From contig NC_081373.1 in the NCBI RefSeq assembly GCF_030684315.1, positions 40,463,989-40,527,988 on the forward strand: a stretch of 64,000 bases of DNA, read 5' to 3'. The position numbers were made by a program, and so were the translations under genes. The number at the start of each line of letters is the position of its first letter. The first letter of the stretch is position 1. Of the stretch, positions 18,207 through 55,364 are shown one piece after another. This DNA comes from Stegostoma tigrinum. Taxonomy: Eukaryota. Below the pieces are notes generated by a model, which worked only from the letters and a program-made list of their open reading frames with translations, had not been told where the DNA came from and did not search any database.

Positions 18207-18434
18207 AGTAATAAAATGTGAGGCTGGATGAACACAGCAGGCCCAGCAGCATCTCAGGAGCACAAAAGCTGATGTTTCGGGCCTAGACCCTTCATCAGAG
18301 CTGATGAAGGGTCTAGGCCCGAAACGTCAGCTTTTGTGCTCCTGAGATGCTGCTGGGCCTGCTGTGTTCATCCAGCCTCACATTTTATTATCTTGGATTC
18401 TCCAGCATCTGCAGTTCCCATTATCACTGATACA
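18207..18434. mobile_element. Palindromic non-autonomous Penelope-like element with hammerhead motifs
   Basis: 90-bp inverted arms (18209-18298 / 18301-18390, one mismatch) plus a ~44-nt tail; 11-bp TSD ATGTAGAGTTA (18196-18206 / 18435-18445). Confidence 0.9.
18301..18330 (+). ncRNA. Minimal type I hammerhead ribozyme motif (PLE-associated)
   Basis: CUGAUGA-A-GGGU(CUAG)GCCC-GAAAC-GUC: conserved core, 4-bp stem II, palindromic ACGU stem III, GUC cleavage triplet. Confidence 0.8.
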
Positions 18435-21400
18435 ATGTAGAGTTAGGTGTCCCATTTCAGAAATACCTCTAGCCTTCTATCTGGCTTTCTACCTTCTATC
18501 CTCTCTGCAGTCACCTTCCTATCCTCCCCCCAACAGGAAACAGTCATGTCTTCCACCAAACTCATTATTAAAGGTTAGCAATAGTATCATGATGTGTTTT
18601 TGTTTTAAATTTCTCCTTTAACAGAGCGAAAGAGGGGATATAAAACTGAAATTTGTGTAGATAAGAAAAGGTTTACATTTTAACTCAGTTCCCAATGTTC
18701 TGTCAGTTTTAACATGCATCCCTGCTTTTCCAGCTATAAAATGAAGATCAACAGATATCCTTGGTTCTGCAGACAGGTAAGAGGCATCCCTCATTATATG
18801 TTGACTCTCATATCACAGTGTCTTTCATGGTCCATGTACTTACTGTAAATACATTTTAAAATTTAAACATTCAAATACATTTTGAAGATGATGTTTCCAC
18901 CCTTTTGCTTTTCATACAACAGACACTACCCTGCAGCCAAGGACAGATGGGCAGTTTGCCAGACCGAACTAATTAAAGAGGTGCAAGGTGATTCACCTTC
19001 TAATTTTTGTCTATTCCTGATGGAAGACTTTTGCCTTGGCTTGACATATCCCAGATGGCAAAGCTAACATTCAGAATTTACCTTCTGATGAATTGCAGAG
19101 CATAAATGCTTTTCAGAATTACGTGACACAGCACACTAATAAGATATTGCCCCTTGCTACCTCTTCCCAAAATGTTTTGCACATAAATAGAACACTACAT
19201 GCTAAATGGACAACACAGACCAATCCTAAAAGTCAAGAGAATCTTAATGACTCATACAATTGATGAGGTCCTGCTTATCATGAAATAATCTTCCCAGCAA
19301 CACTCTTTAGCCTTCAAATTTGTGAAAATGTCAAACCCCAAAATTCAGTGTACTGACAGTAATACCAAAAACAATGTACTCAGTACATTATCAAGATGTA
19401 AAATATGCCGTGAAAGCTTGCTTGTAGCTTGGGTTCAATTTACTGTGTTTTTTTCAAAACTTCTGGACTGACGTAAATCAAAATTCATTAAGTTGCCGCT
19501 TTGTCAGAAAAACTAATGGGATGACACAGGTTTAATGACAGAAGTCCGCAGGAATATTTATTTCATGTTTAAAGGAGGAATAGATAATGAACAACCTGCC
19601 TCCTTTCTCACCTTGGGAGTCTATTTATACTAGGCTGGAACAAAAAGGATGGAAACACATTATCTGTCAATCAATTTTAATAAATACAGAATGGTCTTGC
19701 TTCTTGTCATTGCAATCCTGCAGTTATGTCACACCACTGCTCAAAATCATATTTTTTTTTGTTTTTCAGGCCTCAAAATAATCACATTTATGGCTTGTAA
19801 CATTATCATTATCTTTGCTTAGCTAAAACGCAGCTGCAAAATATGATCCATGGCTTTTTGTGCACCTCCTGTTTGTCAATTGCCATTCATCATCAATAAT
19901 TATAATAAGTAAAAAGTGCTAGTTGATGTTTTGCCAGTAAATGCATTAGCAATTTTTCTACCCTTTGCATTGTGGTAAATGAATCTCTAATCAATGTCAC
20001 CAATCTGCTCTATTATAACCTGCTGCATTCCCTAAGAAATGGCACTTTCATCTCACATTTTATTGTAAACTTGCTGTAATGAATTCCATACAGTAAACTT
20101 TGTGCAGAACTATTTGCACATCACTAGGTTTTTCTAAAAAGCATAATGTCAATCACCTGCAATTCCTGATTCAATATAATTTCCTTCCTGAATCTAATTC
20201 CAACAAATTGGGATTCGGTTTCAGCTGCTGCTTCAGTTCCTTAATTCTTTCACGGGAAAACATTCTGAATATTTAGACTGCAAATTCACTTTCATTATTT
20301 GGCACAGCAAGAGAAAACTACAGAAACTTCATGCAATCGTATGGACATAAAATGACTAGAGTTCAATGAAGACTTCAAATAAGAGAAAAAAGCAAACTTC
20401 AAGCAGACTTTCATGACTGCTTCGACCCCAGGCCATCAGGAGACTTCTATGATTTAATAACAAAAAATGTCAGAGAATGGGTTAGTCTTATACTGCAGAC
20501 TTGTAGGCAATCCCCAAGGAGAAACTGACGTTAAAATTGAACTAATGGTTAAAAGTGTTGGCCTGAAATTCTGAGGATGCATCTTTTAAACATTAGAATT
20601 GAAATTCAAAGTCAGGGAACTGGAGTCAAAACATGGGTAAGATGGTCTGAAGACTACTGTGATTTCACATGCTCCCCATGGACCAGCAGAGACTCAAGTA
20701 CATATCACAATGGCTTGCCCGAGATCAGATAGCTAACAACTGCTGGGCTGCTGAGAAAAGGAACTCATTTGACAAGTACCTAGGAAATTACCATGAAGAT
20801 GAACAGAAGCCAGTGTACAATTTCCATCCCTTAGTTTAGAAGATAGTTCACTGGGTACCTGTAATCTTTTGGTGCATTGACAGCCATGGCTGTACACTCA
20901 GTGAATTATTTCTTGGATTAGCATCTCAAAAATCAGAATTAACTTACATTTTGGTTTAATTTTTCAGATTTGATACAACCAAACTTTGTGAATTAGTCTC
21001 GCACCCTCTGCAGTTCTACAACACATACATCAACAGTAAATTATTAAAGAAGTTTGTTTACATGTCAATCAAGCTTGGAGAAATCGCTGCATGTAACTTT
21101 AACTATATTAGCAGCAACAAAACAAAAGTTCAGTTGATATTTTTGACAGTTAACACCAGGGCCCAGAAAACCTATGGAAGCTGAACTAGACCCCAGCTCT
21201 TAAGGATGCACAATGCTTTAAGATAAAAGGATTTGCTCGAAAACTACGTCATTCTACTAGCTCTGTTAGATTTGAAATGACATCCTAAAGAAAGAATGTA
21301 CCATTTGCACATTTCTACTTTCATATCTGAAACTTTGAAAGAAGCTTCAAATTTAGTTTTGTATTTAATGAAAAACCTGCAGAGTTTGGAAATGTCAAAG

Positions 21401-21929
21401 GAAAAATCAGCAAGTCAGATCCCAGCAAGCAAGCTGCAGCTGTGGTGGAATAGATTTCAGAAACTGGGGGTAGGAATAAAAGAGGGGGGGTGGGAAGCGG
21501 TGGGGTTCTGCTGAATGGGCACGGGGGATCCCATAAATGAGGCACACGCCCCTTGGTCCAACAGCAATCTGTGCTAGGAAAGTACATTCCTCTTGCCTTG
21601 CTCCTCCCCCACCCCTATTACCTCAAACCCAACTTGTCCAGACAGAGGTAAAATTGTAGTGGTGAAGGAATTAGGCCTATAGGTGGCAGCCTAAGGTCCT
21701 TGATAGGCCTAAGGGTGGATGGGCCACCTGGTTCCTTACCCATCCACTTTTACACGGAAGACAAGTCAAGGGTGAGTAGGGAAGCGGCAGGAACCACCCG
21801 TTTTATTTTACATGTGCCTCTGCCTTCAAATACACTGTCAGTCAAGTGAGGGGTCTCACATAACTCACTCTAACAACATTTACTGTGAAATCTGACAATG
21901 TATACAAGTCTAGAACAGTCCAGAACAAG

Positions 21930-23470
21930 CGAGGCAATGTGATTAACACTGCTGCCTCACAGTGCCAGGGACCTGGGTTCGATTCCACCCTCGGACGACT
22001 GTCAACGTGGAGTTTGCACATTCTCCCTGTGGATTGGCCATGCTAAATGGCCTGGTAGTGTTCAGGGATGTTCAGGTTAGGTGGGTTTGACATGGGAAAA
22101 TGAAGGGGTAGGGGGAATGGGTCTAGGTGGGATGCTCTTCAGAGGGGGGGTGTGAATTTGTGATAATGGGAACTGCAGATGCTGTAGAATCCAAGATAAC
22201 AAAGTGTGGAGCTGGATGAACACAGCAGGCCAAGCAGCATTTCAGGAGCACAAAAGCTGACGTTTCAGGCCTAGACCCTTCATCAGAGAGGGGGATGGGG
22301 AGAGGGAACTGGAATAAATAGGGAGAGAGGGGGAGGCGGACAGAAGATGGAGAGAAAAGAAGATAGGTGGAGAGGAGAGTATAGGTGAGGAGGTAGGGAG
22401 GGGATAGGTCAGTCCAGGGAAGACGGGCAGGTCAAGGAGGCAGGATGAGGTGGTAGGTAGGAAATAGAGGTGCGGCTTGAGGTGGGAGGAAGGGATGGGT
22501 GAGAGGAAGAACAGGTTAGGGAAGCGGAGACAGGCTGGGCTGGTTTTGGGATTCAGTGGGTGGAGGGGAAGAGCTGAGCTGGTTTTTACCTTCCCCTGCA
22601 ACCGCAGGAAGTGTTACACTTGCCCCCACACCTCCTCCCTCACCCCCATCCCAGGCCCCAAGATGATTTTCCATATCAAGCAGATGTTCACCTGCACATC
22701 TGCCAATGTGGTATATTGTATCCATTGTACCCAGTGTGGCTTCCTCTGCATTGGGGAAGCCAGGCGGAGGCTTGGGGATCACTTTGCAGAAAACCTCCGC
22801 TCGGTTCGCAACAAACAACTACACCTCCCAGTCGCGAACCATTTTAACTCCCCCTCCCAATCCTCAGACGACATGTCCATCATGGGCCTCCTGCAGTGCC
22901 ACAATGATGCCACCCAAAGGTTGCAAGAACAGCAACTCATATTGCGGAACCCTGCAGCCCATTGGTATCAATGTGGACTTCACAAGCTTCAAAATCTCCC
23001 CTTCCCCCACTGCATCCCAAAACCAGCCCAGTTCTTCCCCTCCCCCCACTGCATCACAAAACCAGCCCAGCCTGTGTCTGCCTCCCTAACCTGTTCTTCC
23101 TCTCACCCATCCCTTCCTCCCACCTCAAGCCGCACCTCCATTTCCTACCTACCACCTCATCCCACCTCCTTGACCTGTCCATCTTCCCTGGACTGACCTA
23201 TCCCCTCCCTACCTCCCCACCTATACTCTCTCCACCTATCTTCTTTTCTCTCCATCTTTGGTCCACCTCCCACTCTCTCCCTATTTATTCCAGTTCCGTC
23301 ACCTCATCCCTCTCTCTGATGAAGGATCTAGGCCCGAAACGTCAGCTTTTGTGCTCCTGAGATGCTGCTTGGCCTGCTGTGTTCATTCAGCTCGACACTT
23401 TGTTATCGGGGGTGTGAATTTTTTGGGCTAAATGGCCTGCTTCCACACTGTCAGATTTTTCTGATTCTGC
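21930..23470 (+). mobile_element. HE1-type V-SINE split by a PLE insertion (SINE parts 21930-22159 and 23408-23470)
   Basis: tRNA head (GGTTCGATTCC) and V-domain on the left; the CR1-like tail resumes after the insertion. Confidence 0.85.
22160..23407 (+). mobile_element. Penelope-like element, 5'-truncated, with GIY-YIG endonuclease fragment and inverted 3' copy
   Basis: ORF 22477-23196 includes CNRRKCYTC...FTCTSANVVYCIHCTQCGFLCIGEARRRLGDHFAE...PVANHFN (PLE GIY-YIG). 22160-~22583 is an inverted copy of the 3' end. Hammerhead motifs at 22259-22286 (-) and 23316-23343 (+). 14-bp TSD GGGGGTGTGAATTT (22146-22159 / 23408-23421). Confidence 0.93.
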
Positions 23471-23686
23471 TTTGTGTCTCTCCCAAGGTACAGAACTGAA
23501 CATTCTAAGTGTTTTTGCATGATAAATATCTCCCAGGATAAAAACTTCTAAGTGTATTCAACATCTTTGATACCTTTTACTTTTTAATATACTTTTGCTC
23601 CGCCCCTTCCAACTCCACAATCGATTTGGAACACAATACTAACATTTAAAACCATGCCCACTTCAGTAACCTACTTTTAATATGTT

Positions 23687-24096
23687 CGTCCCCTCCCCCC
23701 ACTGCACCACACAACCAGCCCAGCTCTTCCCCCCCACCCACTGCATCCCAAAACCAGTCCAACCTGTCTCTGCCTCCCTAACCGGTTCTTCCTCTCACCC
23801 ATCCCTTCCTCCCACCCCAAGCCGCACCCCCAGCTACCTACTAACCTCATCCCACCTCCTTGACCTGTCCGTCTTCCCTGGACTGACCTATCCCCTCCCT
23901 ACCTCCCCACCTATACTCTCTCCACCTATCTTCTTTACTCTCCATCTTCGGTCCGCCTCCCCCTCTCTCCCTATTTATTCCAGTTCCCTCTCCCCATCCC
24001 CCTCGCTGATGAAGGGTCTAGGCCCGAAACGTCAGCTTTTGTGCTCCTGAGATGCTGCTTGGCCTGCTGTGTTCATCCAGCCTCACATTTTATTAT
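23687..24096 (+). mobile_element. PLE 3'-end fragment with intact hammerhead motif (24006-24033)
   Basis: Near-identical to 23040-23407; 13-bp TSD CTTTTAATATGTT (23674-23686 / 24097-24109). Confidence 0.92.
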
Positions 24097-24699
24097 CTTT
24101 TAATATGTTACTTCTCACCCGTGCACTGGATTCTATGATTTCCTGCATCCCACCCCCAACTAGACCCTCGGTTAGCGAGCAGAGGAAATGTACTTTTCTA
24201 TTCGGAGAATATAACTCTTAGTCTGTCTGGCAACCCATATTTCTTTTAAATTTCTTAATATTTTAGGAGTTTTTGGGCATGTTTTCAGTTCCTAGTGCTA
24301 AGGCACATTGAGGTTCTGGCCTCAATTGTTTTTGACACTGAGTGTGCTCAATGAGCTGTAGACAGTTCAGTGCACCATCAACCCTTCAAGAACTACAAAT
24401 TGGATTTAAAGTGATCGAACCATTTAAAAGTGGCCACACATGGGAGTTAAAACACATTTCCTGCATTTCTGAAAACGTCATATCAAAAGCAAATAGCTAT
24501 CTGATCCCAATGGATGGCAAAGCAGATGTAGGAATGGAGCATACAGACCACTGATTGCATTGAGGTGGGAATTGCTCCTAACTCTCCTGTTTAATTCAAG
24601 CAGAACAGAGATTCTCTATTGCACAAAGTAGAGAGGAGGATTGCTCTGTTTCACACTTCAATGTAGTCTATCTCAACATCTCAACGACAGCTTTGTAGC

Positions 24700-25102
24700 A
24701 TTTTTTTTCATCATTCATGAGTGTCGCTGACTGGCCAACATTTATTGCCGATTCCTAATTGTCGTTGAACTGAATGGCTTGCTAGGTAACTTCAGAGGAC
24801 AGTTAAGAGTTAACTGCACACTTCTGTGCATCTGAAGTTACACATAGGGTGACCAATTAACAGGGAAAGATGGCAGACTTGCTGTCCTACTGGGCATTAG
24901 TCAACCAGATGGGTTTTTGCAGCAACAACCAACAATGGTGAATGATCATAACAGGCTAACATTTTCTGAAAGCATCAGTTGTTTTTTTATTGATCAAACT
25001 TCACCATCTGCCATGATGGGATTTCAGCTCATGTCCCACAATGTTAACCTGGCATTCTGGATCAATAGACCAGTGACATTGCAACTACATTCACACCTCC
25101 CT
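24700..25102 (-). mobile_element. tRNA-derived SINE sharing its 3' tail with the CR1-like LINE at 30515
   Basis: Tail ..GCAATAAATGTTGGCCAGTCAGCGACACTCA..; body related to 29665-29920 and 40636-40945. Confidence 0.7.
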
Positions 25103-26740
25103 GGTTCGGCAGGAGATGGCAGGTAGGGTCAATAGTTATTGAAATGCTTGAAAGTCTTAGGAATAGAGATCAGCCATAATTGTATTAAAGGGTGGAGCAG
25201 ACTTGAAGGGCTGAATCGCCTACTTTTGCTCCTAGTTATTCTTATGTTCTTACCAACTTCCTTCTTGAGTATGAACGCTTCTCCTGTTAATCTGCAGTGC
25301 TATATATATATATACTCATGTAAAAGTTGAGTTTGAGAGATCAATATTTAGCCAAAATGCTGTGGATGAACTTATGTTTGTATGAAATCTACACATTCCC
25401 ATCATCTCAGTAGCTGTTTATGACAGTGCTGCAGCTAGCTGCAGGTTTGCCAAGTTGGAGACTGTTCCTGCCAATCATGAACCACATCAAGACAAAACTA
25501 GTAAAATGGAGCCAGAAAGCATTTTCATTATTCTCTGCAGACATGAGAAGTTGAGTACTTTGAATGAGTACATTTGTACCAGATATGCTCGACTGCAGTG
25601 GTTAGTGGATGTTAATTCAAAAGAGTTTGGATTTTTTGACTGCACGTTAGGGGCTGACCTCTACATGAGTTACCTGAAAATTTAAGAAACTTTGGCAAAA
25701 AAAAAGTGTTGAATTATCCATGAGATTGACCAATACTTGAGTATGTATGGTACATTAATGCTCCACATAGGAATTAGGAGCAAAAATACATCATTTGGAC
25801 CTGCCATTCAGTAAGATCATGCTTGATCTGTTAACGTCTTGAATTCCACATTACCACCTATTCTCAATAGCCTTTGATTCCACTACGAAGCAACAACAAA
25901 AATCTATTTACATATGCCTTAAGATATCCAATGACTTCACTTCCATTTGTGGTGTCTACTGCAAGGTAACAAATATCATCATCAGCACACAGCCCTTCCC
26001 ACCAGCTATGGAGTCAGCTGCTAAGGAGCAGAAGCTTGAGGAGGGGCAAAAAAGAGGCAACTGCAACACCCTCTTTCTGAATGGGCAGTCTATGAAGAAC
26101 TGCTGGAATAGGTTGGGTGGAAGGATGAATGATCTCTTCTTGACAGACAACGCCAAAGGAGCCATAGTCTACTGCCACTTGCCCAGGTCACCACCTCAAT
26201 AATGCTACTAATTCACTGGAGGGTAGATTGCTGTGATAGCCTGCAGGTCTTCTGCACAACCAATCAACAGAAAGACTGGTGCGGTGCAGATTTTTACAGC
26301 AACAAGTGAGCCTTGCTGACCTCAGTGTGAGATAGCACTTGCAGGTATTATGCGGAGACTACTTGCACCGCAAATGAAGCATGATTGGAGCCATGGTTAG
26401 GTCAACCGGAATTGCTGGTGGTACGGATGAGGAATAGTTGAACCCCTCTGATAGCTAAACCAAAACATAAGTCCCAATCTGCTGTGACAGGTGTAGGGGT
26501 TCCCCTTTAATAATTAATCCCGGAACACCCAGAGAAGCTCACATTTCCCCTTGTAATCTATTAAAAGAAAGAAAAGACTTGATCTCCACTTTACAAGTAA
26601 TAAGAAATAATTTATTTATTTATAAAAACAGAAGTTGCTGGAAAAGCTGAACAGCTCTGCCAGCATCTAATTTGTTTATTTAACCCAACAATGAACAAAT
26701 TCTGGATGTGAGTTTGCTCACTGAGCTGGAAGGTTAGTTT

Positions 26741-26780
26741 TCAGACGTTTCGTCACCATTCTAGGTAACTTCATCAGTGA
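26741..26780 (-). ncRNA. Minimal hammerhead ribozyme motif, PLE family 2
   Basis: Complete core, 6-bp stem II, 3-bp stem I (UCA/UGA), ACGU stem III, GUC triplet. Confidence 0.82.
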
Positions 26781-26826
26781 GCCTCCGACGAAGCGCTGGT
26801 GTTATGTCCCGCTTTCTATTTATCTG

Positions 26827-26919
26827 ATATAATAAAATGTGAGGCTGGATGAACACAGCAGGCCAAGCAGCATCTCAGGAGCACAAAAGCTGACGTTTCG
26901 GGCCTAGACCCTTCATCAG
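26827..26919 (-). mobile_element. 93-bp PLE family-1 mini-insertion beginning exactly at a hammerhead core (26892-26919)
   Basis: Corresponds to one arm of the 18209 palindrome; 9-bp TSD ATTTATCTG (26818-26826 / 26920-26928). Confidence 0.88.
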
Positions 26920-27016
26920 ATTTATCTGGTTAGGTTTCCTTGGGTTGGTGATGTCATTTCCTGTTCTTTTTCTCAGGGGATGGTAGATTGGCTCCAAATC
27001 AATGTGTTTGTTGATG

Positions 27017-27187
27017 GACGTTTCAGATCGGGACCCTTCATCAGAAATGTAAGATTCTTTCTGAAGAAGGGTCCCGACCCAAAGTATCAGCTTTCCTGCT
27101 CCTCTGATGGTGCCTGGCCTGCTGTGTTCCTCCAGCTCCACACTTTGCTATCTCTGACTCAAGCATCTGCAGTTCTTGCTGTCTCAG
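27017..27187. mobile_element. Older PLE family-1-like inverted fragment
   Basis: Hammerhead-like motif on the minus strand (27017-27044) facing a decayed plus-strand copy (27061-27090) and 3' tail. Confidence 0.75.
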
Positions 27188-28327
27188 ATTTAAATTCAAT
27201 TTGCTTTTTCTATTTAGATGCTCTGTTTAAATTAACTGGCCAAATTCAAACTTATTGTCTGGGAAAAAGTGCTGTTTGGCTGTTCTATACAAAATGTTTC
27301 CATTCGGGCACTCTCTTTGCACCTGCATTTATAAACTTCCAAGCACAGACAAAGCACAAGCTCTAAAAGGGACCATAGCACTCTCTTCCCGCGTGATCAT
27401 TTTTACCAACAAATTCTAACTTCCTGCCCTCCAACTCATGAATACGCTACCCAACTTTGTAACATTGGAAAGAATAGGCTCTAAGCCCATACAAACCCCT
27501 CTTCGCAGTTAGCACGGCAAACATCCATGCCCTTTAACACTGACCGCAGGCTTACTGACAGGTTTCTCAAGTCATTAAGATGTGTACAGCCATCGTCAAT
27601 CAACTGTAGCCTTCCCCAAAGTCCTTAGCTAAGTTCTTTGCAGGGAATTTATATGCATTTTACACCCTCCAATAAATTACCCCTTTTGTCATCCATTTTC
27701 CTGCCTCAGCTCTGACCCATGACCTATTATTCACCGTTTGCAAATCATGCTTTGAGCTTATCCTCAATATCTGAATTGATGGCTGCCATGATGAAGAGCT
27801 GGCATTGTGTACAAACTGGTAGCAGTGGGTGCAAGCGTTACGTGAAGCATCTGAACATTTAGCATGAGTCCTGCTTGGCAGAAATTGCCGGTAGTTGATA
27901 GATAGTGGAGTGGTGTTCTGAGCAGTCTCAGAGGCAAGATGCTCCATTGTTAGCTGTTGAAGATATATGCATTGCTCACGACCTTGACTGTGCAGTCAGT
28001 GTGTCTTGCTGCACTGCAGTCAGGTCTTTGACCCTTTAGACATTGACCTCCACCCAAACACAGCTGCCTTCTGATGATCGATCTGCAAAGTCCCAGGCCC
28101 TCTATTTGACACAGCACTTTTCCATTCTTTTCTACTCTACTCTGTCAAGGTCTCTGGAACAGCTTTCAGAAATAATTTCTTCAAATGCTCAAGAATATGA
28201 CTGCTTTCTAAGACCAATATTTAATCATGACCGGACAGTACGTACTTCCTCTTCAGCCTGTACCTTAGATTCTCGACAAACCCGCCAGTTCTCATTTTTG
28301 ATCCAGCAGTCAACAATGTTATGGTTT

Positions 28328-28540
28328 TACACACACACACGTGCACAAACATAAACACACAAACATGCACATGTGCACAGACACACATACAAACACACAC
28401 ACACAAATACACACATCAGTGCACAAACACACACATCAGTGCACAAACACACACGTGAGCACACAAACACGCATGCACACATACGCATACATGCACAGAC
28501 ATGCATACACACACGCACGCACGCACACACACACACACAC
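28328..28540. repeat. Imperfect (CA)n microsatellite
   Basis: Direct inspection; it generates the low-complexity ORFs in the track. Confidence 0.95.
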
Positions 28541-32177: not shown

Positions 32178-32531
32178 ATCATACAATCGCTACAGTGTGA
32201 AAGTAGGCCATTTGGCCCATAAAAGCCACACTATCCCCCCAAACAGCATCCCACCAAGACCATACCCCTACCTTATCCCAGTAACCCTGCATTTCCCATG
32301 GCTAATCCACCTGGCCTCCATATCCCTGGAAGCTATAGGGCAAATTAGCATGGTCGCCCACCTAACCTCCATATCTCTGGACTGTGAGAGGAAACAGCAC
32401 CCAGGCAAAACCTACACAGATATGGGGAGAATGTGCAAACTCCACATAGACTGGCACCCAAGGCTGGAAACGAACTATGGTCCCTGACGCTGTGAAGCAG
32501 CGGTGCTAACCACTGAGCCACTGTACCGCCC
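32178..32531 (-). mobile_element. HE1-type V-SINE, full length
   Basis: GGGCGGTACAGTGGCTCAGTGGTTAGCACC head, V-domain, CR1-like tail. Confidence 0.9.
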
Positions 32532-36873: not shown

Positions 36874-37001
36874 AGATAATAGGAACTGCAGATGCTGGAG
36901 GATCCGAGGTAACAAAGTGTGGAGCTAGCTGAACACAGCAGGCCAAGCAGCATCTTTGCTGCTTGGCCTGCTGTGTTCTTCCAGCTCCACATTTTGTTAT
37001 C
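36874..37001. mobile_element. 128-bp palindromic PLE family-1 insertion without the hammerhead, inside the Tx1 RT
   Basis: Inverted arms around GCAGCATCTTTGCTGC plus tail; 15-bp TSD TCATAAGCCTTTCTG (36859-36873 / 37002-37016). Confidence 0.9.
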
Positions 37002-37784: not shown

Positions 37785-38046
37785 ATTGACACCCTCATCG
37801 TATGCAGCATGGGTAGGTTCTACTGCTTTTCTGGAGTTTGGACAGATTCCCCATCTCTGTCTCACCTACTGAACACCTTTGAGGATAAAGAACGTCTTGA
37901 TGTTTCCCTTGGCTGTTTCCAAGGGAAACATCAAGAGATTCTTTATCCTCAAAGGTGTTCAGTAGGTGAGACAGAGATGGGGAATCTGTCCAAACTCCAG
38001 AAAAGCAGTAGAACCTACCCATGCTGCATACGATGGGGGGGTCAAT
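37785..38046. repeat. Fold-back inverted duplication (128-bp arms, 6-nt loop) within Tx1 ORF2
   Basis: 37785-37912 is the reverse complement of 37919-38046 with ~4 mismatches; the ORF track shows the same peptide on both strands. Confidence 0.95.
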
Positions 38047-41824: not shown

Positions 41825-43450
41825 AGCAATAGCCTGAAATAGTCACACTCACAGAATCATAGTTTACTACGTCTCAGACAACACCATCACCATCACCATC
41901 ACTGGGTATGTCCAGGCAACTGATTCAGTTCAGCGATTTACAGCCAGGAGAAAGTTGCCCTACTGTCCTCAACATTGATTCCTGACCATACAAAGTCTCA
42001 TGATACCAGGTTCAATATGGATAAGGAAGCCCTCCAGATGTGGATGAACCAGCCTGCACCTCTTCAGCTGATGAATCTGCACTCTATGTTGAGCATCATT
42101 TGGAGGAAACACTGAGGGTGGCATGGGTGCAGAATGTAATTTGGCTAGGGTATTTCAATTTCCACCAAGAACGTCTTCAAAGCGTCATTACTGTTTGAGT
42201 TGATTGAGTGCTAAAGGACAAACTGCTAGACTGGATCTGTGGCAGGTTGGGAGCAAACCAACAAGATTGAGAAACATACATGATCTCATCCTCATGGAGA
42301 TCCCCACCTACTCTCACCTTTACTGGCTCCACACCCACCTCTTTGATCTGTCTATCTCCTCTTCACCTACCTGCTCCTTTATCCACCTTCCATCTGCCTC
42401 TTCATCTCTCTATTTATTTCAGAATCCCCTTTTCCTCCCCCATTTCGGAAGAAGGGTCCAGACCCATAACGTCAGCTTTCCTGCTTCTCTGATGCTGGTT
42501 AGCCTGCTGTGTTCATCCAGCTATACACCTTCGTATCTCATCCTCATGGATCTGCCTACCTGTAGGTGCATCAGTATCAGTAGTCCCATATTCACATTAA
42601 GATAACCCTTCACCTTCTTGTGTGGCACTATCACAGTGCTAAATGGGATAATAATTGAACAGATCTCGCATTGCAAGACTGGAATTCAGGAGGTACTATG
42701 GGCCATCAGCAGCAGTAGAATTGTACTCTTGCACAATTTGCAATCTCATATCTTCCACTCTTCCATTGCCATCAAGCCAGGGGATCAACCCTGGTTCAAT
42801 GAAGAGCATAAGATGACAGGCCAACAGCAGCATCAAAACATAGTAACGAGGTGTCAACCTGGTGATACTACCCAAACAGGACCACCTGCATGCCAACAGG
42901 ATAAGCAGTAAATGACACACTGAGCTAAGTGATTCCATTATCAACAGATTAGATCTGAGCTCTTCACTCCTGCCGTATCCAGTCATGAATGGTGGTGGGC
43001 AATTACATAAATCATTGGAGGGTGAGACTCCACAAATATTCCCATCCTCAATGATGGATCAGACCAACACATCAGTGCAAAAGATAAGGCAAACACATTC
43101 ACAACAATATTCTGCCAAAAGTTTCAAGTGAATGGTCTACCTTTACCTCGTCCAGTGGTCCCTAGCATCATTGATGCCAGTCTACAGCCAACTGTAGAAC
43201 TAGTTGCACCCACGCCAAGGTTGTTCCAGTCCACCTAAAGCGCTGGCATCTACCTGACAATGTCAGAACTTTCCCAGGTGTATCCTGTGCACAAAATGCA
43301 AGACGAATCCAATCTGCCCCTATCAGTCTACTCTTGATAATCAATAAAGTGGTGGAAGGTGTCATCACTAGTGCTGTTGAGCAGTACCTGCTCAGCAATA
43401 AACTACTCACTGACACCCAATTTGATTTGAGATGGGATAGGATGTTCACT
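41825..43450 (+). mobile_element. CR1-like LINE (second lineage): APE and RT N-terminal part, degraded
   Basis: IVTLTES...TITI.GYV (APE), IKPGDQPWFNEE, PISLLLIINKVVEGVI..YLLSNKLLTDTQF; same lineage as 30515-32130. Confidence 0.82.
42299..42534 (+). mobile_element. PLE family-1 3' fragment (older), inserted in the LINE
   Basis: Decayed hammerhead-like GGAAGAAGGGTCCAGACCCATAACGTC; 16-bp TSD ATCTCATCCTCATGGA (42283-42298 / 42535-42550). Confidence 0.85.
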
Positions 43451-45459: not shown

Positions 45460-46022
45460 CATGACAGGTAGGAGCAGAATTAGGCCATTTGGCCCATTGA
45501 GTCTGCTCCACCATTCAATCATGGCTGATATGTTTCCCAATCCTAATTTCCTGTCTGCTCCCCATAACGCTTGACGTCCTTACTAATTAAGAGTCTATCC
45601 ATCTCTGTCTTAAATACACTCAATGACTGGCCTTCACAGCCTTCTGTGGCAATGAGTTACAGAGATTAACCACTGTCTGGTTGATGAAATTCCACCTCAA
45701 ATCATTTCTAAAGGGTTGTCTTTTCACTCTTAGGCTGTGCCCTGAGGTCCTATTCTCTTCTACTCATGGAAACATCTTCTCCATCCACTATATCTATGCT
45801 TCTCTGTATTCTGTGGGTTACAATGAGATACCCCCCTCATCTTTTTAAACTCCATCGAATACAGACCCAGGGTCCTCAACAGCTCCTCATATGACTAGTC
45901 CTTCATCCCTAGGAACATTCTTGTAAACTACCTCTGGATTTTGTCCAATGTCAAGCACATTGTTAGTTACAGGACCCAAAACCACTTACAATATTCCAAG
46001 TGTGCTCTGACCAGAGCCTTAC
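45460..46022 (-). mobile_element. CR1 3'-end fragment inserted in the Gypsy
   Basis: Homologous to 2820-3380 (LVRAHLEYCKWFW, CR1 3' UTR). Confidence 0.88.
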
Positions 46023-46929
46023 TACAACATACTTTGCAAGGAAATCTCGAGAAATAACGACTTTCAGAACACCATTGGTAGAATACTGCTTCCAAAAACT
46101 ACCGTTCAGTCTGTCAGTCAGGATTCTTTCCAGCAGCACATGGACACAGTTACAGAAAATATTCTTGGATATGTATGTGTGTATTACTGATGAATTATGG
46201 CCATAGGCAAACCAAACAGAAGCATGACCAGAACGTATGCTCACTGATGGCAGCCAATTGTCACAAAGGACTGATCTTCAACAGCAAGAAATGTCAGGTG
46301 AATGTAGGTTAGATCAACTTTTTCAACTTTATTTATTCATATTGTGGTATTTATTTTGACATGGGCAAAGTCAAAAATGTACAATGTGTCTACTCCCTAA
46401 GACTTAAAAAATCTGCAGGGATATCACCAAACTTTTAACTTCCTAGCATCACACAAACCAAAATTTTCCAACAAACCATAGTCATTGAGAGAGCTTTTAA
46501 ACAAAGATATCTAATATAAATGGCAGGAGGAACATCAACAAAGTTCAAATCACTCAAACAAGTGCGGACAGCAGATTATCGCATTCTATAGCACTATGAC
46601 AATCCTAGAAGTTGATGGCATCTCATAAAGGGCTAGGCATGAGCATGATGGAAGATTGCAAACCAACTACGTTTGGATTCAAAAGTCTATCCCAAGCACA
46701 ATCCAATTATTCTAAAGGAGAGTGTGAAAAAATTGCTCTGCTATTCACTACCATAGGCATGTAAAAATTCAAAGGAGACAGAATGGACATTTGGACATTG
46801 AAATGGAAGATGTGCTTGAGGTTGATTTGATGAATTTTAGTCAAATACAGTGAACTTCTGGAAGAAACAGCCATTACTGAAAGCACTATGGAAAGTTATC
46901 AAAAAAGAATACAACTGGCTTCTGATACT

Positions 46930-47078
46930 GTGATAACAAGTCATAGAAATTTCTGAAGAAGGGTCTAGGCCCAAAACGTCAGCTTTCCTGCTCCTCTGAT
47001 GCTGCTTGGCCTGCTGTGTTCATCCAGCTCTACACCTTGTTATCTCAGGTTCTCCAGCATCTGCAGTTCGTATTATCT
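46930..47078 (+). mobile_element. PLE family-1 mini-insertion (hammerhead variant CUGAAGA, GAAA mutated)
   Basis: 15-bp TSD CTGG(C/T)TTCTGATACT (46915-46929 / 47079-47093); vestigial 9-nt inverted arm GATAACAAG at the left end. Confidence 0.88.
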
Positions 47079-48610
47079 CTGGTTTCTGATACTTACACTT
47101 TAGCAATATAGAGATGAACTGGATATTTCAACAGGTGGAATTTTAATAGGAAAACAAGAGCTTGTAACTGAGGATTGTCACCAGGGCTTACTGTTAGTTT
47201 CATTGGGAACACTGGAGCATACAGCAAATGAGATGGCTGGCTGGGATACCATGTATTGGCCAGAGATCAACAATGACGCAAAGAGCACAGTGACTTTGTG
47301 TGAAGTGCACCAGACTCACTAACCACAACAATGCAAAGAACTTCGAAGCCCTTATGAGATTCCATCCATCCTTTGTCCAAAATCACATATTTATTCACTA
47401 CATGTGGCAATAATTTTCTCCATGTCACTGATTACTTTTCCAAATTTCCAATTGTCAGATAGTTAACAGACAGTTCAAGTGTATCCGTGACAAACAAGAA
47501 TGCAAAAATCAGTCCATTCAATACATCTGAAGAGCTCTTATCTTACAATGGGCCATAACATGCATGAAGACCTTTTAGAGATATGTGTGCCAACTGGGTC
47601 ATAAACTGTGTCAGCTTCACCACATTATCTCAGATATAATGTTCCCACTGAGCAAATAGTTTGCAATTTTGACTATGTACCACGAAGTACCGAGCCGAAA
47701 GAAAAATTTCATATTGCTATGCTACGGCCAAGGGCTATTCCTCTGGATACAGGCTTTCCATCAACAGCAGAAATTATGTTTGGAAGGAAAATTAGGATAA
47801 TCCAGCCAAGCCATCTCAAAAAAATGAGACAGATTGAAGATGGTGCAAAGCCAACATGAAGGGGCAGAACAGTCAGATCTATGTATAGGAGAAAAAGCCA
47901 GAGTCCTAACCAAGGAGCCTGATAACTGACAAAGCTACCCAAAGTGTGCAGTGAACCTAATTTGTATGAAATTGCACCACCTAATGGAACAATATTGAGA
48001 AGAAATAAAAGCCAACTCAGGGAACTGAATAAACATGTTGAGAACCATTATGACAAACATGCTCTAGCTATTCACAAGACAGCAACACTTGTGCAAGTCA
48101 AGAGCAATAAGGTGTAAAAATCTAGATCTCCAGAAGGTTAAAACATCACAAAAACTGGAAGGATTGTCAAGCCACCTACATGATATACAGACTCAAGCTT
48201 AATATCTTTCAGTTCCTGTTCTTGTACGATAATTTTTGCAACTACTGAATGTATATGTATGTTCAATCTTAGTGCATGTAATTTTATTTTGGGCAAGAAA
48301 GATGTTGTATCAGTTCTTCATGAGCCATGTTGCTTTAAGAGCAGATAACACGAATGAGCCAAGGATGCGAAATGATTAGAATGAAAAGGGCAACCATCAG
48401 CATACTAGAATAAGGATGTGGTCACAAAGTATTCTGTAATTGCAAGTTGTCAGTTTGTCTGTTAACTAAACCTGTTTGTGATATTCAAATAAAATAAATC
48501 TAAGCTACTTACCAATCCAACATGGGAGTGATAATTCTATGTTAAGGAACTCAACCTGAGAGGACAAAATATCTCACATTACTGCACTCTGCAAGGCTAA
48601 TTAAGACTAC

Positions 48611-48812
48611 AAGGTGTGGAGCTGGGTAAACACAGCTGGCCAAGCAGCATCAGAGGAGCAGGAAAGCTGACGTTTCAGGCCTAGGCCTGAAGGAGAGTCT
48701 AGGTCCGAAACGTCAGCTTTTCTGCTCCTCTGATGCTGGTTGGCCTACAGTGTTCATCCAGTTCTACACCTTGTTATCTAAGATTCTCCAGCATCTGCAG
48801 TTCCTACTATCT
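48611..48812. mobile_element. Palindromic PLE family-1 insertion
   Basis: Inverted arms around a decayed hammerhead centre, plus tail; 14-bp TSD CTAATTAAGACTAC (48597-48610 / 48813-48826). Confidence 0.9.
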
Positions 48813-51800
48813 CTAATTAAGACTACTTGGCTGGATAACTGCAATATGAGGGAGTGTGTACCACCACCTACCCCTATTCTGCCACTGGAAAAATAGCCTA
48901 GTGCTACTTGTTCACACTTGTCCACCTCCATAATCACCCAAAATGGACGCAAAAATTTAGTCCATGGGCATTATGTTATATTTTCCAAACTTTCAAGCAG
49001 TAGCCAAGGTCAAAAGGAAATTTTACATTATAAGAGTGGTCAAAGGATAATAATGTGTTTGAGAGCACATTATGAAAGGGATTAGTTTTTAAATGGTTAG
49101 GTTAATGATTAATACTCGGTTATAAACAAAACAATGTTATGGCATCGGTCACTGTGCATTAAAATTATAAGAATCTTAATTCTTGGTCTGATCAACAAAC
49201 TAAAAATTCTGCGATTAGGTAGGTTAATTTCTCATTGCAATTTGGAATAAATGGCCCAATTAGGAAATGCCCTGAGCAAAATAAATCTACTCATACAAAG
49301 AACTAATTTGCTTTTTTCTTCAATGCATAGGCTATTACTGAGAGTGTCACATGATTGTGCAAGAAAATTGAGAATTTACAATGACAATAAAGGTTTTCTA
49401 TTAAATGCTTCAAGATTTCATAATTTGATATTAATATAAAATGTACAATGGCAGGCACATTTTCCCAACTAATGTAAAATACAATGAATTCATCTGTACC
49501 TAGTTACAGCTTCATAATAAATCATAGATAATATATTATGTGCTATTCATAAGAGTACATGTCTCCCTGAAATGTCATTATTGCAGCATGTAATTTCACT
49601 GCCAAGTAATAGCATAAGCACTATCCATTAAATAAATGTCCTGAGGCACAAAATCCATGTACACGCATTACAAGAAAAGCTACAGATTATGTAATGAAAG
49701 CCTCAATTTTATTTATAAATATAGATATCTGATGTCTGTTAAACATCATAAATCACTTATTCTAAGGTTACAGAGTTGTTTCTCAATTGCACATTTTATC
49801 AGAAGTCAGGCATGTGACAAATTAAAAGTACTGTTGAAATTTAGTAACAAAGAAACTTAATGAAAAACATGAGAGAATTTAAGTAAATGGTCTGACATAC
49901 TAAGTGTACGATGATTATATCCTTAACATTGAAATAACTTCAAATTCAATGATAAAATTTCACTAGCTATATTGATTACATGAAAATTCATTGGAACCTG
50001 GTATTTGTAATTTAGTTTCTCTTTCTGTGTTAACCAGAGACAGTAGCATGATTTCTCCAGGTATGATAGATGCTAAAGAGTCTCTGAGGCGCCCAAATTG
50101 TGTGTGGAGCTGCAGGAAACAGTTTCATCAGAAGAAGTTTTTCAGAACTCAAAACATTAACTCTATCTTTCTCTCCAAAGATATTGCCAGATCTACTGAG
50201 TTTCTCAAGTATTGTCTCTGTTGGCATCTCTACCTTGCCCTGCTTTGCCACCTCATTCAATTCTTACATCCTCATTACTTCTGTCTTTCCATGCCTTTTA
50301 GTGCATACACAAAGTCAGTTAGCTTGTCATATTTACCAGCAGTTATCAGTCAAGGGGATGGACATATTGTTGTATGTCACTTTACAACATCAGTGTCACA
50401 CCTGTAACGTGCCAGCAGCTGAAATGGCAAACATGCTGCATGTGCATCACCCAAATGACCATGTCTTGAAGTCCGATGGAACCAGTCTTCAGGCAAATTA
50501 AAGGGGCACTGTCAGTCAGTGTGTCCATTACAGTCAGTCAAGGACTTTATTAGATCTCAATCAAGGCACTTGAAGACAGTCAGTTGACCACTTTGGGGGT
50601 CGAGGTCACGAGCTCCATATAATTACAGTCTGGGGACAGAGACACGGTCCGGTGCAACCAGCCTAGGAATTGTTGATAGATCCATGGGCATCTGCACAGG
50701 TATCAGTCAGCACACTGGTTGTTCATCAGCGGGGGCTGTCCTTCCAAGTCAGTCAGAGAGATAGGCCACAGTCAACCATGGAGATCCGTTCACTGCAAGT
50801 GAAAGAGGATTATCAGGGAAACTGCTGTGGCTGGCAAATTGGGAAAGTAAATTGTGGGATTTGGAGGCAGCAGACTAGAATGGAGAGGAGATAATAATCA
50901 TAGCAGGGGGCCAACTTAATGTGTGAGGGTGAGATATGATAGTGCACTGGAGGGCATGTAGGAATGTAGGTGGGAAGGTTATCAATGGTCAATACCACCC
51001 TGATTTTTTTGGAGAGATAGTGAATGGTGCATCACAATGGTTTGGCATATCTAAGATGTAGGGCAGGGGCTCAGAGGTAACATGGTACATGAAGAAGAAG
51101 AACATGGAGCAATTAAAAGTAATGGGATCAACAGGAAATGCAAAGAAAAAGGACTGTGAAGATTTGGTGTGTCACCCAGATGAACCTGAGCCTATGGTTC
51201 ACTGCGTGAAATGTGACTTGGTTGCCTTCCATTCTCATTCAAATTGCAAGTATTCAATGGAAATAAAAAATGGGGCTGCCACCACACACTGAGTAATCAG
51301 CATAAGCATTTTTTGTCTTTGTATGACAACATGGGCTTTAATTGTAAGCCACTCCAAGGGACAATTCTATTCACTAGGCTCTTACACAGTCCAGGAATCA
51401 AGTATCTGTAATCGTGGAATTCTGCAATGAAACACATACAACGACCAACTATGTAGGATACAAATCCTGGTCATAAGCAATCTTGACCATGTTACTGGAC
51501 AGAAAAAGAAGTTTGTCGTCATCTCTCTAAAGTATAAACAATTGCAGGTGACATTAGAAGTGTCGCCTGCAGGTCACAATTCACAAAGATAATCCACAAT
51601 CTCATAGGCTGCACTTTGGCATAGAGCTGACTGCCTGATACCTTGAACTGTAAGGATTTGGCAGCATAATCTTATATGTTCCTGGGTGATGTGGGTGGTA
51701 GGGAGGTTGAGAACAAGGTTTCAGTAAGTATACTGCAGTTGCATTCTCCTACTGTTCTTGATTGACATGGTTTTTGCTACGTCCATCAGAATGACGCCCA

Positions 51801-53011
51801 TTCTGTCAAAGATCCATGTAGCAACATTCCATGACTCTGCTTGTTACAGCCCTCTGCAAGGACATTGCTTCAACTTCATCTAATGGGGAAATTTGTCGTC
51901 CTTCACAGTATATTCCATCCCATCTGCCATTCAAGGGAATTAATACATTTGAAGGGATAGTTTGACTTATCTTTTGAGAATTGAAGGCTTCTGGAGCTTT
52001 TTGCATTCTGTTTGATTTATCTCGGATCTCTTCTGTTGCACTGTAGTGACACTGCTATGACATTCCAGGGCAGAGGGCATGGCTGTGCCACCATTTAGGC
52101 CAAGGTCAATGTGTTCTGCAGACAGATGATTCAGGCCCTGAAGAAGCATAAGGGCCAATGGAAGATCAGGTGTAATGAAGAATCAAAGTGCAGGACTGGA
52201 AAAAAACATGGTCAGTGAGATCCAGGCCATTTTAATTTGACAGAAAGATGAATAAGCTGGCCCAAATGCAACTTCAAAATGTGAGATGGGTGTCTACCTA
52301 TGCCAGGCCTTTGAATCCTGTGGGCCTTGATGGTAGTGTTACCATAGCTTTGCTGAGCTCAAGACTAACAACATGAAATGTGTTTACCCTGTCCGCATTG
52401 TTTATTACCTCCTCTAAGAACTCTGATATTTGTCAGAATGACATCCCTTCCACAGGCCAGACCTGAACTTCTTCGAAATCTGTATTGTTAAAATGCTTCA
52501 TTGTGGATAAAGTACACAGTAGATGCAGCAGCCTGATGTTAGGAATTGGAAATCATATATTGAGCAGAGATCAAAATACTGGAACAATTTTCACTTGAGC
52601 AGAGAAGGTAATGAAGGTGTTTAATGGAGAATTTTACACTATGAAAGGCATAGATAAAATAAAGAAAGAAGGATTGTGATCTGTCTTTGAGAATTATTGA
52701 TAAGGGATCTTCAAAATAAAATTACTACTAAGCTACTGAGGAGGTAAGTCTGGGGATTATTGATGTAAAGGATCATTCCCATGTGGAATGCTTTGGCATA
52801 TAAATCGATTAAGAAACTACTGCCTCTTTTCACTGGAAAATTGGACTAACATTTGAGACAAAGCACGTTACTGGGTAATGGAAGAAATAATTTGGGGCTG
52901 CTCGAGCAAACCGCTGGTACAGACCCAATGGGCAGAAAATTCTCCTTCTATAAATCTAAGGGACAAAGTACCTGGGCTGACAGGATGATAGACAAGGTGG
53001 TTTCAAAACAG

Positions 53012-53186
53012 AAACAAGGAACAGTAGATGCTGGAAATGACAAGCAAAAACAGAAATTGCTTTGAAAACTCAGCAGGTCTGGTAGCATCTGTTCAGAAAA
53101 AAACAGAATTAATGTTTCAGGTCCAGCGACCCTTCTTCAGAACCGGAAAAAGGTTCACTAGACCTAAAACATTAACTCTGCATTCT
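53012..53186. mobile_element. Older palindromic PLE end (third family)
   Basis: Minus-strand CTGAAGAAGGGTCGCTGGACCTGAAACATT facing a short inverted copy; related to 60891-61042. Confidence 0.7.
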
Positions 53187-54507
53187 GTAAATCAGGTGGT
53201 GTATTGATGGGACATATAAGAATTAGGAAAGCAAGCTGACTTTGCCAGTGTTACAGCCTATCAAAGCACCATATTAAATTACAATATTGAGTGGGAGAGG
53301 TAGTTGATATTAGAAGAGTGAAGCTGAGAAGTATTTGGCTAGTTTGAAACAGAATAAGGAGGCATATCTTGGTGTAGCTACTTGTGAAATTTTGATCCAT
53401 TTTAAGATTAAACGGTTTGAAGGGAACTCTCATGAGCTGAGAGTCAATGCAAGTTGCACCGAAGGTTGAAAAAGCCCAGACTTTGGTCATCAATCTAGTA
53501 GGGATTTGAATTACCTATTTAAAAGCCAATTGGTTCTCTCTGCTTCTCTTTGTCAAATGACCACTTGGCTCCTTACCAGAGGATTGGAACATGTTCCTTC
53601 ATGCACCATTATTGTGCATGACTGGTTGCTCTAACATACAGATGGTCTAGTACGAGAGGCAGTAAATAGTCACCATCATTGCTGCTTCAGAGTTGCACTC
53701 CAGTGTATTTATGGAGGAACAAATCTCCTGGGACTTTAGGCCCTTTGGTACTATAATTAAGTGACCAGCCATTGGATTAATTTGAGTCGAACCCTTGTCA
53801 TTTATGAATGTATCTCACTGAATATTAATATACTGTTATGTAAAATATGCCTGTCCCCATGGCCCACATACAGCATTTCAAAAGGAAATTTGTTTTAATC
53901 CTTAATGTCAACATTGTATCAACAGTGGCATGTTGTTAGTATTCCTTAATTCACCTCTACCACCATAGTTTCAACATTGAAAGGGCCAGGAGTAGCTGCA
54001 TGAAATTTTTCTTCTTTGGCTAAGTATTTCCTTGGCATCATAGAAACTGTCAGGTAAAATATTTCTATTGAAATCATTGTGTAAAATGGATTGATGCTGC
54101 TGAAATTCACATCACTTGCAATTTTTTTAAAAAAGTGCTGTCAGAGAAGAAACCGTCAATTCTTTCCTTGGACTTTATTAACCCGCAAATGAAAGGGCAG
54201 TTTTTAAAATACTTTTAAAGGTTTAAAGAATCGAGATGTGTTCTGTTTTAGAACATCATTTTTTACCTCTAGGATCTGGGCTCAAATGTAGTCTGGTATG
54301 AATCAGACAAAAGCCCTCACTTTCCGTAAGTTATTAAGGCCTCCACGACAAATGCACTTCAACACAGTCAACTTATTCAGATCCCACAGCAACTTCAGCC
54401 AAATTACAGCACTGACCACAATTCAGAAGTAATTGATATAAATTGAAGAACGTATATGCTACCATGAGCTATGGTTGACTGCTCTGCAAATACAAGTTGT
54501 GAAATTA

Positions 54508-55364
54508 TGGGATAGCAGGAATTGCAGATGCTGGAATCAGATATAGCAAAGTGTGGAGCTGGAGGAACACAGCAGGCCAGGCTGCATCAAAGGAGCAGGA
54601 GAGTTGATGTTTCAGGTCGGGACCCTTCTTCAGAAATGGGGAGAGGTAGGGAGCTCAGAAATAAATAGAGAGAGGGTGGGTGGGGCTGGGGGTGGTAGAT
54701 GGCACGGTGATGGGTGAGAGCAGGTAGGAAGTGGTGGGGATTGGTCAGTGAGGTGGGAGGAGCGGACGGGTGGGAGGGAAGATGGAGAGGTTGTGTCAGG
54801 TCAAGGAGGCAGGGATGAGAGGGAGGGTTGGTCATGGGATGCAGCCGGGGCGTGGTGGGGAGATTTCGACACTGGTAAAATTCATATTCAGGCCATCGGG
54901 CTGTAAGCTCCAGAGGCAGAATATGAGGTCCTCCAATTTGCAGGTGGCGCCGTTGTAACACTGGAGGAGGCCCAGGATGGACAGTGTCACAATGACGCCA
55001 AATGCAAACTGGAGGAGCACTACCTCATATTCTGCCTCGAGAGCCTACAGCCCGATGGCCTGAATGTGAATTTTACCAGTTTCAAAATCACCCCACTGCC
55101 CCCCTACCTCCGGCTTCATCCCATGGCCAACCCTCCCTCTCATCCCCGCCTCCTTTACCTGACACCTTGCTGACCAATCCGCACCACTGCCTACTTGCAC
55201 TCACCCATCACCATCCCACCTCCCTTCCCCACCTCTCCCTATTTATTTCTGAGCTCCCCCGTCCCTTCCCATTTCTGAAGAAGGTCCCGAATTGAAACAT
55301 CAGCTTCCTGTTCCTCTGTGTCTTCCTGGTCTGCTGTGTTCCTCCATCTCCACACTGAGTAATG
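54508..55364. mobile_element. PLE with inverted 3' halves (GIY-YIG C-terminal fragments on both strands)
   Basis: ILGLLQCYNGATCKLEDLIFCLWSLQPDGLNMNFTS on the minus strand and KLEEHYLIFCLESLQPDGLNVNFTSF on the plus strand; hammerhead-like motifs near both ends; imperfect TSD G(T/C)GAAATTA. Confidence 0.88.

Follow-up and report, generated by a model that had tools for sequence, protein, structure and literature searches.

A 64,000-nucleotide stretch of the genome of the shark Stegostoma tigrinum (assembly GCF_030684315.1, contig NC_081373.1, positions 40,463,989 to 40,527,988 of the forward strand; here called the window) contains a series of short, often palindromic repeats that carry a hammerhead ribozyme motif and resemble the ends of Penelope-like elements (PLEs). 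The locus raises the question whether these repeats form a non-autonomous lineage mobilised in trans, as an initial annotation had proposed, or are truncated copies of an ordinary PLE, and why several of them begin at the hammerhead core. We consider it probable that an endonuclease-bearing (EN+) PLE inserted here repeatedly and independently, leaving 5'-truncated and often inverted copies, the shortest class of which would result from run-off at the 5' end of the transcript, just upstream of the hammerhead core.

Most of this finding is PLE anatomy that has already been published. The new point, relative to the literature found, is a peak of 5' breakpoints 30 nucleotides (nt) after a conserved TATA-like box. 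No published breakpoint peak at the edge of a PLE hammerhead or after such a box was found in the literature covered, older PLE reviews and Repbase lying outside that coverage. The available supplements of PMC11167929 hold no text on 5' ends, and their Fig. S2, a coverage plot, may bear on the novelty of this point.

5' breakpoints at the hammerhead edge

Breakpoints and 3' ends were numbered relative to C3 of the hammerhead CUGA, taken as position zero. The breakpoints were read from 16 arms; those of old copies were placed by eye and are approximate, and a stub at 46930 was excluded. They lie at -729, about -355, -319, -300, about -295, -147, -5, -4, -3, -2, 0, 0, 0, +12, +44 and +48. Seven of the 16 arms, and five of the ten insertions, break within -5 to 0, that is 0-5 nt before the CUGA core, an excess that bears out the earlier remark that several copies begin there. 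In a scan test that lets a six-base interval fall anywhere, P for the arms was 0/100,000 under a uniform model, 0.0003 under an exponential fitted to the median and 0.006 under the steepest exponential (mean 50 nt). Arms belonging to one insertion are non-independent data points; for the insertions (5/10) P ranged from 0 to 0.018. A second PLE family in the window behaves similarly, with three of five readable arms breaking at -3 to 0: one inverted copy breaks at -3 and 0, and one single copy, with a 9-bp target-site duplication (TSD), at -3.

Contigs of four of 22 public runs (X1, X5, X9 and X16) were aligned to reference positions 22135-22610, the arm of the 22160 copy, and the contig results given here refer to the rows listed, loose ends being shown as six rows per run; a further 1272 loose ends, 97 joints and 151 rows of table 5c lie beyond these rows, and the X1 counts are lower bounds. 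In X1, -1 was the only 5' loose end with mixed flanks among the six rows (782 contigs, agreement 0.37), and the flank at this position is T-rich, unlike the G-rich element sequence. A loose end at -1 was also listed for X5 (24 contigs). Joints at which the alignment 'goes back' start at -1 to -4 in all eight rows listed (87 contigs in X1), and in X9 four such rows starting at -1 hold 8 contigs.

Several other features were considered and set aside. The loose ends at 22240, 22569, 22290 ('before'), 22373, 22453 and 22584 have an agreement of 0.6-1.0 and were attributed to subfamily divergence or to an arm edge. A splice acceptor was rejected as the cause of the peak, since the first AG past the pyrimidine tract lies at +7/+8 and random flanks are not expected from splicing; a G-quadruplex in the cDNA was rejected because the G-runs are complete only 20-25 nt further upstream. 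Breakpoints near +44 to +48 (36874-37001 and 26624-26668) fall at the edge of a predicted stem formed with the tail and may mark a weaker second hot spot.

A conserved TATA-like box

The arms that reach far enough upstream share the following box.

23282..23288, plus strand: TATTTAT box, 34 nt before C3
23972-23978, 42411-42417 and 55240-55246, plus strand: TATTTAT in other copies
22314-22320 and 54661-54667, minus strand: TATTTAT in other copies

TATTTAT starts at -34 or -35 in six of six arms long enough to contain it, and in the 130 nt upstream it is the sole A/T run of at least six in all six long arms. The box is identical at 8/8 nt in ten of ten pairs of the five arms compared; the spacer between box and core keeps its length and is identical at 13-18 of its 26-27 positions between distant subfamilies. 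The longest window copy of the second family reaches only about -28, short of the box position, and a third family has an A/T run at about -46, which does not match it.

Transcription starts approximately 30 nt after a TATA box and would be expected here at -4. At this position subfamilies C and D carry CCATTTC, an initiator-like sequence; such motifs are frequent in pyrimidine-rich DNA. A similar box, TATTTATA, had partial activity in HeLa extract (PMC10005294), and the literature search found no cited viral promoter with TATTTAT. PLE transcripts have been described to start inside the upstream pseudo-long terminal repeat (pLTR; PMC2377424), and a putative TATA box and initiator have been noted in a rotifer pLTR (PMC3846280).

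Copies in the window

The copies, with their subfamilies (A to D) and breakpoints, are as follows.

18207..18300, minus strand: inverted arm, subfamily A; short 3' end at 18207; 5' breakpoint -2
18301..18434, plus strand: direct arm of the same copy; starts exactly at C3; long 3' end (+133)
18196-18206 and 18435-18445: 11-bp TSD of this copy
22160..22586, minus strand: inverted arm with tail (long end), subfamily B; 5' breakpoint about -300
22587..23407, plus strand: direct arm of the same copy; short end; 5' breakpoint -729
22146-22159 and 23408-23421: 14-bp TSD of this copy
23687..24096, plus strand: non-inverted copy of 410 bp, subfamily A; short end; breakpoint about -319; TSD 13 bp
26827..26919, minus strand: non-inverted copy of 93 bp; starts at C3; short end; TSD 9 bp
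27017..27190: tenth copy, inverted, subfamily D
27017-27049: inverted remnant of the tenth copy; breakpoint -5
27058-27190: direct arm of the tenth copy; breakpoint -3; long end
36874..37001: inverted copy; minus arm from +44 (long end), plus arm from +48 (short end); TSD 15 bp
42299..42534, plus strand: non-inverted copy of 236 bp, subfamily C; short end; breakpoint about -147; TSD 16 bp
46930..47078, plus strand: subfamily C; inverted short-end stub of ~10 nt followed by a direct arm that runs from -4 up to the long end; TSD 15 bp, one position mismatched
48611..48812: inverted copy, subfamily C; minus arm with short end and breakpoint about +12, in helix II; plus arm from C3 with long end; TSD 14 bp
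54508..55364: old inverted copy, subfamily D; long end on the left, decayed short end on the right

At least nine insertions of a single family had been reported at first. Self-BLAST linked all nine stretches as related sequences and added the tenth at 27017-27190, which had been missed; they fall into at least four subfamilies with 63-100% identity and are not homogeneous. Copy lengths span 93-1248 bp. Several copies are 93-150 bp long and non-coding. The description as 'mini' elements does not apply to 22160-23407 and 54508-55364, which hold endonuclease coding remnants; both arms of the latter extend into endonuclease coding sequence.

A TSD of 9-16 bp had been assigned to every copy. Abutting direct repeats were found at eight of the nine (11, 14, 13, 9, 15, 16, 15 with one mismatch, and 14 bp), the exception being 54508-55364, whose weak repeat spans 7 exact bp, or 9 bp if one mismatch is allowed. 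At the tenth copy no TSD was recognised. Since an exact repeat of at least 9 bp occurred in 1/1000 random boundary pairs, the copies can be regarded as independent insertions, as had been stated.

The 22160 copy is inserted into a tRNA-SINE-like repeat (SINE: short interspersed element), at the end of one copy of the SINE-like dispersed repeats seen at 8891-9101, 14894-15092, 16962-17144, 21939-22150 and 32267-32531. The second PLE-like family, whose hammerhead has a 4-bp helix I, is found at 53002-53193, 60891-61042, 62785-62940, 26624-26668 and 50125-50220. A third lies at 26700-27016, its minus strand carrying an intact hammerhead core at 26777; the 26827 copy is nested within this hammerhead-bearing family, which also adjoins the 27017 remnant, so that the region is a nest of PLE insertions. 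An unrelated 262-bp inverted repeat at 37785-38046 is 95% perfect and shows no clear TSD; read on the minus strand, its left arm together with the flank encodes a disrupted frame that appears to resemble a long interspersed element.

Identity of the element

22588..22944, plus strand: C-terminal PLE endonuclease fragment (P0001), a CX4CxxC linker and, after it, a GIY-YIG-type region that contains two cysteines
23316..23345, plus strand: predicted minimal type I hammerhead (CUGAUGA, extra A, helix II, GAAA-CG-UC; cut after +27)

The 22587-23407 arm carries an endonuclease remnant, a pyrimidine-rich 3' untranslated region (UTR), the TATA-like box and the hammerhead. The reading frame of the remnant shifts beyond 22944. 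P0001 contains the VVYCIHCTQCGFLCIG region and gave no Pfam match itself; it is 88% identical to Rhincodon typus P0002 and 84% identical to Stegostoma tigrinum P0003, which are partial proteins of 469 and 522 amino acids. P0002 matches the Pfam GIY-YIG model above cut-off and RVT_1, for the reverse transcriptase (RT), below it; RT coding sequence is not present in the window copies themselves. As P0003 continues past the endonuclease, through the pyrimidine-rich UTR and into the same hammerhead sequence, the end module can be tied to an RT-endonuclease open reading frame (ORF), and the derivation from PLEs is confirmed by the remnant together with these relatives.

The linker reads CNRRKCYTC and satisfies the CX2-5CxxC pattern which, placed before the endonuclease, marks the Neptune and Nematis clades (PMC8557442). 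The vertebrate PLE clades listed in bioRxiv 10.64898/2026.07.22.740005 are Neptune and Poseidon. By their sequence the copies represent the 3' end of an EN+ PLE whose linker is of the Neptune/Nematis type, and the vertebrate host would favour Neptune over Nematis.

Hammerheads were called by pattern match to the minimal definition of PMC4209133. The core is intact in nine of the 13 arms that span it and disrupted in four; no hammerhead was found by the pattern search in 36874-37001, so the family is hammerhead-bearing only in part. Helix I has only 2 bp. Rfam at E<=1 gave 13 matches, all below the gathering score and with no hammerhead among them. In subfamilies A and B an AUG within the hammerhead core opens a 13-codon frame ending in UGA (18304-18345); subfamilies C and D have no AUG there.

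3' ends and inverted arms

Two recurring 3' end classes had been described and were found again, at about +86 to +93 and +125 to +133, each ragged by several nt. The three non-inverted copies all end short. Both 3' ends face outward in every inverted copy, and the pairing of a short with a long end, also observed initially, holds in six of six inverted copies with both outer ends readable, a count that includes the ~10-nt stub at 46930 and the decayed end at 55364. Within an insertion the two arms are invariably of one subfamily, and those of 18207 have a private G at +53 in common. A single template per inverted insertion is therefore likely.

That the ends reflect two priming positions has already been demonstrated biochemically for the Poseidon element PAc of Anolis carolinensis (PMC11167929), in which two adjacent internal RT start sites ~35 nt apart, downstream of the hammerhead, bound a 30-40 bp tail, and in which both target strands are nicked and extended in vitro. 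PAc belongs to the Penelope/Poseidon clade, which lacks the CX2-5CxxC linker present here; the hammerhead-proximal AUG, compared with that of PAc, opens a frame of 13 codons only and is absent in subfamilies C and D. Priming of PAc was reported to be non-homologous to the target, whereas in the window the TSD overlaps the continuation of the template by 21 nt at 11 3' ends, against 9 expected (P=0.003; 18207R, 27057R, 54508L and 54508R were excluded, and 54508L would score 0). This overlap suggests brief primer-template pairing at insertion.

In at least 171 X1 contigs (four rows) and 3 in X9, reference positions 22158-22162 are joined to 22194-22195, a long end abutting an inverted short 3' end. 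This tail-to-tail junction is absent from the window copies and may stem from elements inserting into their own tail end or from inverted units arranged in tandem. The contig counts at 22193-22197 (891, 3405, 1199 and 693) combine genuine short ends with copies of other subfamilies that carry the tail, and are unusable as a ratio.

A possible route to the short copies

The proposed mechanism starts from 3' ends that are bounded by TSDs and linked to coding sequence of the RT/GIY-YIG type. The element's protein would nick both target strands and prime at two RNA sites ~35 nt apart, as established for the Anolis element, giving short and long ends; priming from both nicks would then produce arms joined head to head, whose outer ends are short on one side and long on the other. 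Up to this point we hold the scheme with high confidence. In its last step, transcription driven by the TATA-like box would begin near -4 in the upstream pLTR and give the transcript a second set of priming sites, 90-130 nt from the cap. Priming at this 5' copy would run off the RNA end and yield a 'strong-stop-like' cDNA of 93-135 nt, and priming in the downstream pLTR would yield long, randomly truncated arms. The odds for this step we take to be even. The breakpoints follow a conserved TATA-like box at a distance of about 30 nt, whatever the strength of the hairpin, and this suggests an RNA 5' end.

Several observations weigh against an RNA start at this position. TATTTAT reads AATAAA on the other strand, a polyadenylation-signal-like motif that might account for the conservation of the box even if it is no promoter. 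The 5' junctions of the arms show no consistent extra G, as a copied cap might leave. In X9 and X16, -1 is not among the six loose-end rows, and X1 may be the window's own sample. Immediately upstream of -1, subfamilies C and D depart from the reference, so the contig peak pools several positions and may hold longer copies. The PLE promoter of Drosophila virilis is TATA-less, and its start lies 45 nt (spliced) before the 5' edge of the hammerhead as placed by PMC4209133 (PMC2377424); the geometry of start and hammerhead is thus not general.

Other explanations

The edge of an RNA fold or of a bound protein could also set the peak, if RT were released after copying the hammerhead hairpin or if a 5'-3' exonuclease trimmed the RNA to a protected region. 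The isolated motif is indeed predicted to pair CUGA with the UCAG at the cut, in a stem that begins exactly at C3 and reaches -9.5 kcal/mol, against -1.7 kcal/mol for the minimal active-like fold (helices I and II). The 36874 arms start at the edge of a second stem with the tail, predicted in the 46930 fold, and the Anolis protein assists its hammerhead, for which the first 172 nt of the ORF are needed (PMC11167929). However, the local hairpin is weak in some subfamilies (-3 to -7 kcal/mol, with -7.2 and -3.1 in C and D) and strong in others (-9.5 to -16), and the breakpoint position is kept throughout; the peak also persists in the second family, which lacks the CUGA/UCAG pairing. A fold edge leaves the fixed spacing to the TATA-like box unexplained, and the Anolis RT passes through its own hammerhead in vitro, its product shortening with 5' truncation of the template, i.e. 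reaching the RNA end (PMC11167929). The earlier suggestion that truncation is biased by the ribozyme fold thus stands as to the clustering at the 5' edge of the hammerhead; the breakpoints are not at the cut and persist with a weak hairpin, and the fold is one possible cause, which we regard as unlikely.

That self-cleavage of the hammerhead makes the main 5' end of the template is extremely improbable. The core is intact in most arms, but none of the 16 window arms starts at +28, the first base past the predicted cut, and the peak lies 28-33 nt upstream of it; helix I is very short, and cleavage is not required for insertion of the Anolis element in vitro (PMC11167929). Two of the 12 listed joints with inserted letters (table 5c of the survey, reference 22258) do start at +28. 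They are possibly a minor class of run-off at a cleaved 5' end and a hint of cleavage in vivo.

For the inverted arms, self-priming of one cDNA or of an antisense RNA has been proposed in rotifer PLEs, where PMC3846280 argues for it from junction palindromes. A 20-nt palindrome is present at the 48611 junction, and the common subfamily of paired arms and the private variant at 18207 would fit such a fold-back, but they are also expected from two cDNAs made on one RNA. The 18207 junction consists of a 2-nt loop with no pre-existing stem for priming, the 22160 arms differ by 430 nt in length, and fold-back alone does not account for the short and long outer ends in all six copies, which follow from priming of both nicks at two start sites. 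Nicking and extension of both strands in the Anolis system also speak against fold-back, which we judge to be rather improbable.

The separate non-autonomous, retrozyme- or MITE-like lineage (MITE: miniature inverted-repeat transposable element) would have its own master copies. Several copies are indeed short, bounded by TSDs and free of coding sequence. Sequence flanked by pLTRs can be mobilised in trans by PLE proteins (PMC3846280), pLTRs are the source of retrozymes (bioRxiv 10.64898/2026.07.22.740005), and some partial tandems occur in the contigs. A tree of 13 of the 16 arms over 92 columns (27017L and both 36874 arms were too short and left out) showed no clade of short copies. Short and long arms required five changes on it, and 429 of 500 shuffles were as low; well-supported branches force at least three changes, and a single change occurred in 0% of bootstrap trees. 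Short arms occur alongside long ones in three of the four subfamilies; the remaining subfamily consists of the 22160 pair. Over 91 bp the 93-bp copy at 26827 matches the 410-bp copy at 23687 with 100% identity, no pair of short copies has both ends in common, and copies starting at C3 are without the upstream box and the 5' strand of helix I. None of the six tandem arrays in the window involves the PLE family. Since short and long arms are mixed across four subfamilies and tandem hammerhead arrays are lacking, neither a retrozyme nor a MITE lineage is indicated, and the initial proposal is not supported. The lineage reading appears very improbable, although, with 13 arms compared, a minor master lineage may exist elsewhere in the genome.

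Comparison with known elements

Canonical EN+ PLE insertions are likewise TSD-bounded and 5'-truncated, with head-to-head arms and a tail usually at one end only, the inverted 5'-truncated partner being a typical feature; they also share the C-terminal GIY-YIG domain and the hammerhead in the pLTR (PMC8557442; PMC3846280; PMC2377424). In the available text of these papers 5' truncation is frequent and variable, and no hot spot at the hammerhead edge is named, unlike here. The TSDs of 9-16 bp compare with 8-10 bp cited for rotifer copies. The copies and their relatives show a C-terminal GIY-YIG region with two cysteines, linked to RT via P0002, a predicted hammerhead in the pLTR recognised by pattern and without an Rfam match, an optional 30-40 bp tail, an inverted 5'-truncated partner and TSDs of variable length.

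The dispersed metazoan hammerheads of PMC4209133 are likewise minimal and of type I, with an extra base after A9, a G-C closing pair and a palindromic CG at 15.2-16.2. Helix I has 2 bp here, as in D. virilis, versus 4-5 bp in those hammerheads. Single minimal hammerheads were attributed in 2014 to truncated PLEs, with opposite-strand pairs 100-700 bp apart (PMC4209133); unlike the present work, that paper maps no breakpoints in its available text.

Non-LTR retrozymes are also short, non-coding, pLTR-derived and hammerhead-bearing, but they are head-to-tail tandems of at least two hammerhead units with family consensus lengths (bioRxiv 10.64898/2026.07.22.740005). The copies described here are single or head-to-head and have variable ends; no head-to-tail tandem was found in the window (partial tandems in contigs only), and the 13 arms contain no short-unit family of their own.

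MITEs have a uniform size, a fixed short TSD and the terminal inverted repeats of a DNA transposon. The copies span more than a tenfold range in length, their TSDs vary, and their arms are PLE 3' ends with unequal termini. On present sequence evidence, this is a shark member of the EN+ PLEs with truncated and inverted insertions, and not a new non-autonomous class.

Significance

If the peak is not a transcript start, the copies are ordinary truncated PLE insertions and the finding has annotation value only. Tentatively, and with somewhat more doubt than confidence, we propose that a TATA-like box in the upstream unit directs shark PLE transcripts to start at the hammerhead's first bases, and that the short cDNAs integrate alone or as a second arm. 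Because PLE reverse transcription starts internally, every mRNA would carry a priming site ~90-130 nt from its cap. The formation of inverted and partial-tandem ends of PLEs and the in vivo cutting by weak hammerheads are given as open questions in PMC11167929 and PMC4209133. The proposal, if true, would account generally for the inverted 5' pLTR of PLEs. Thousands of genomic copies would then record the 5' ends of the templates, with a capped class at -5 to 0 and a minor ribozyme-cut class at +28, the latter being indirect evidence of hammerhead cleavage in vivo.

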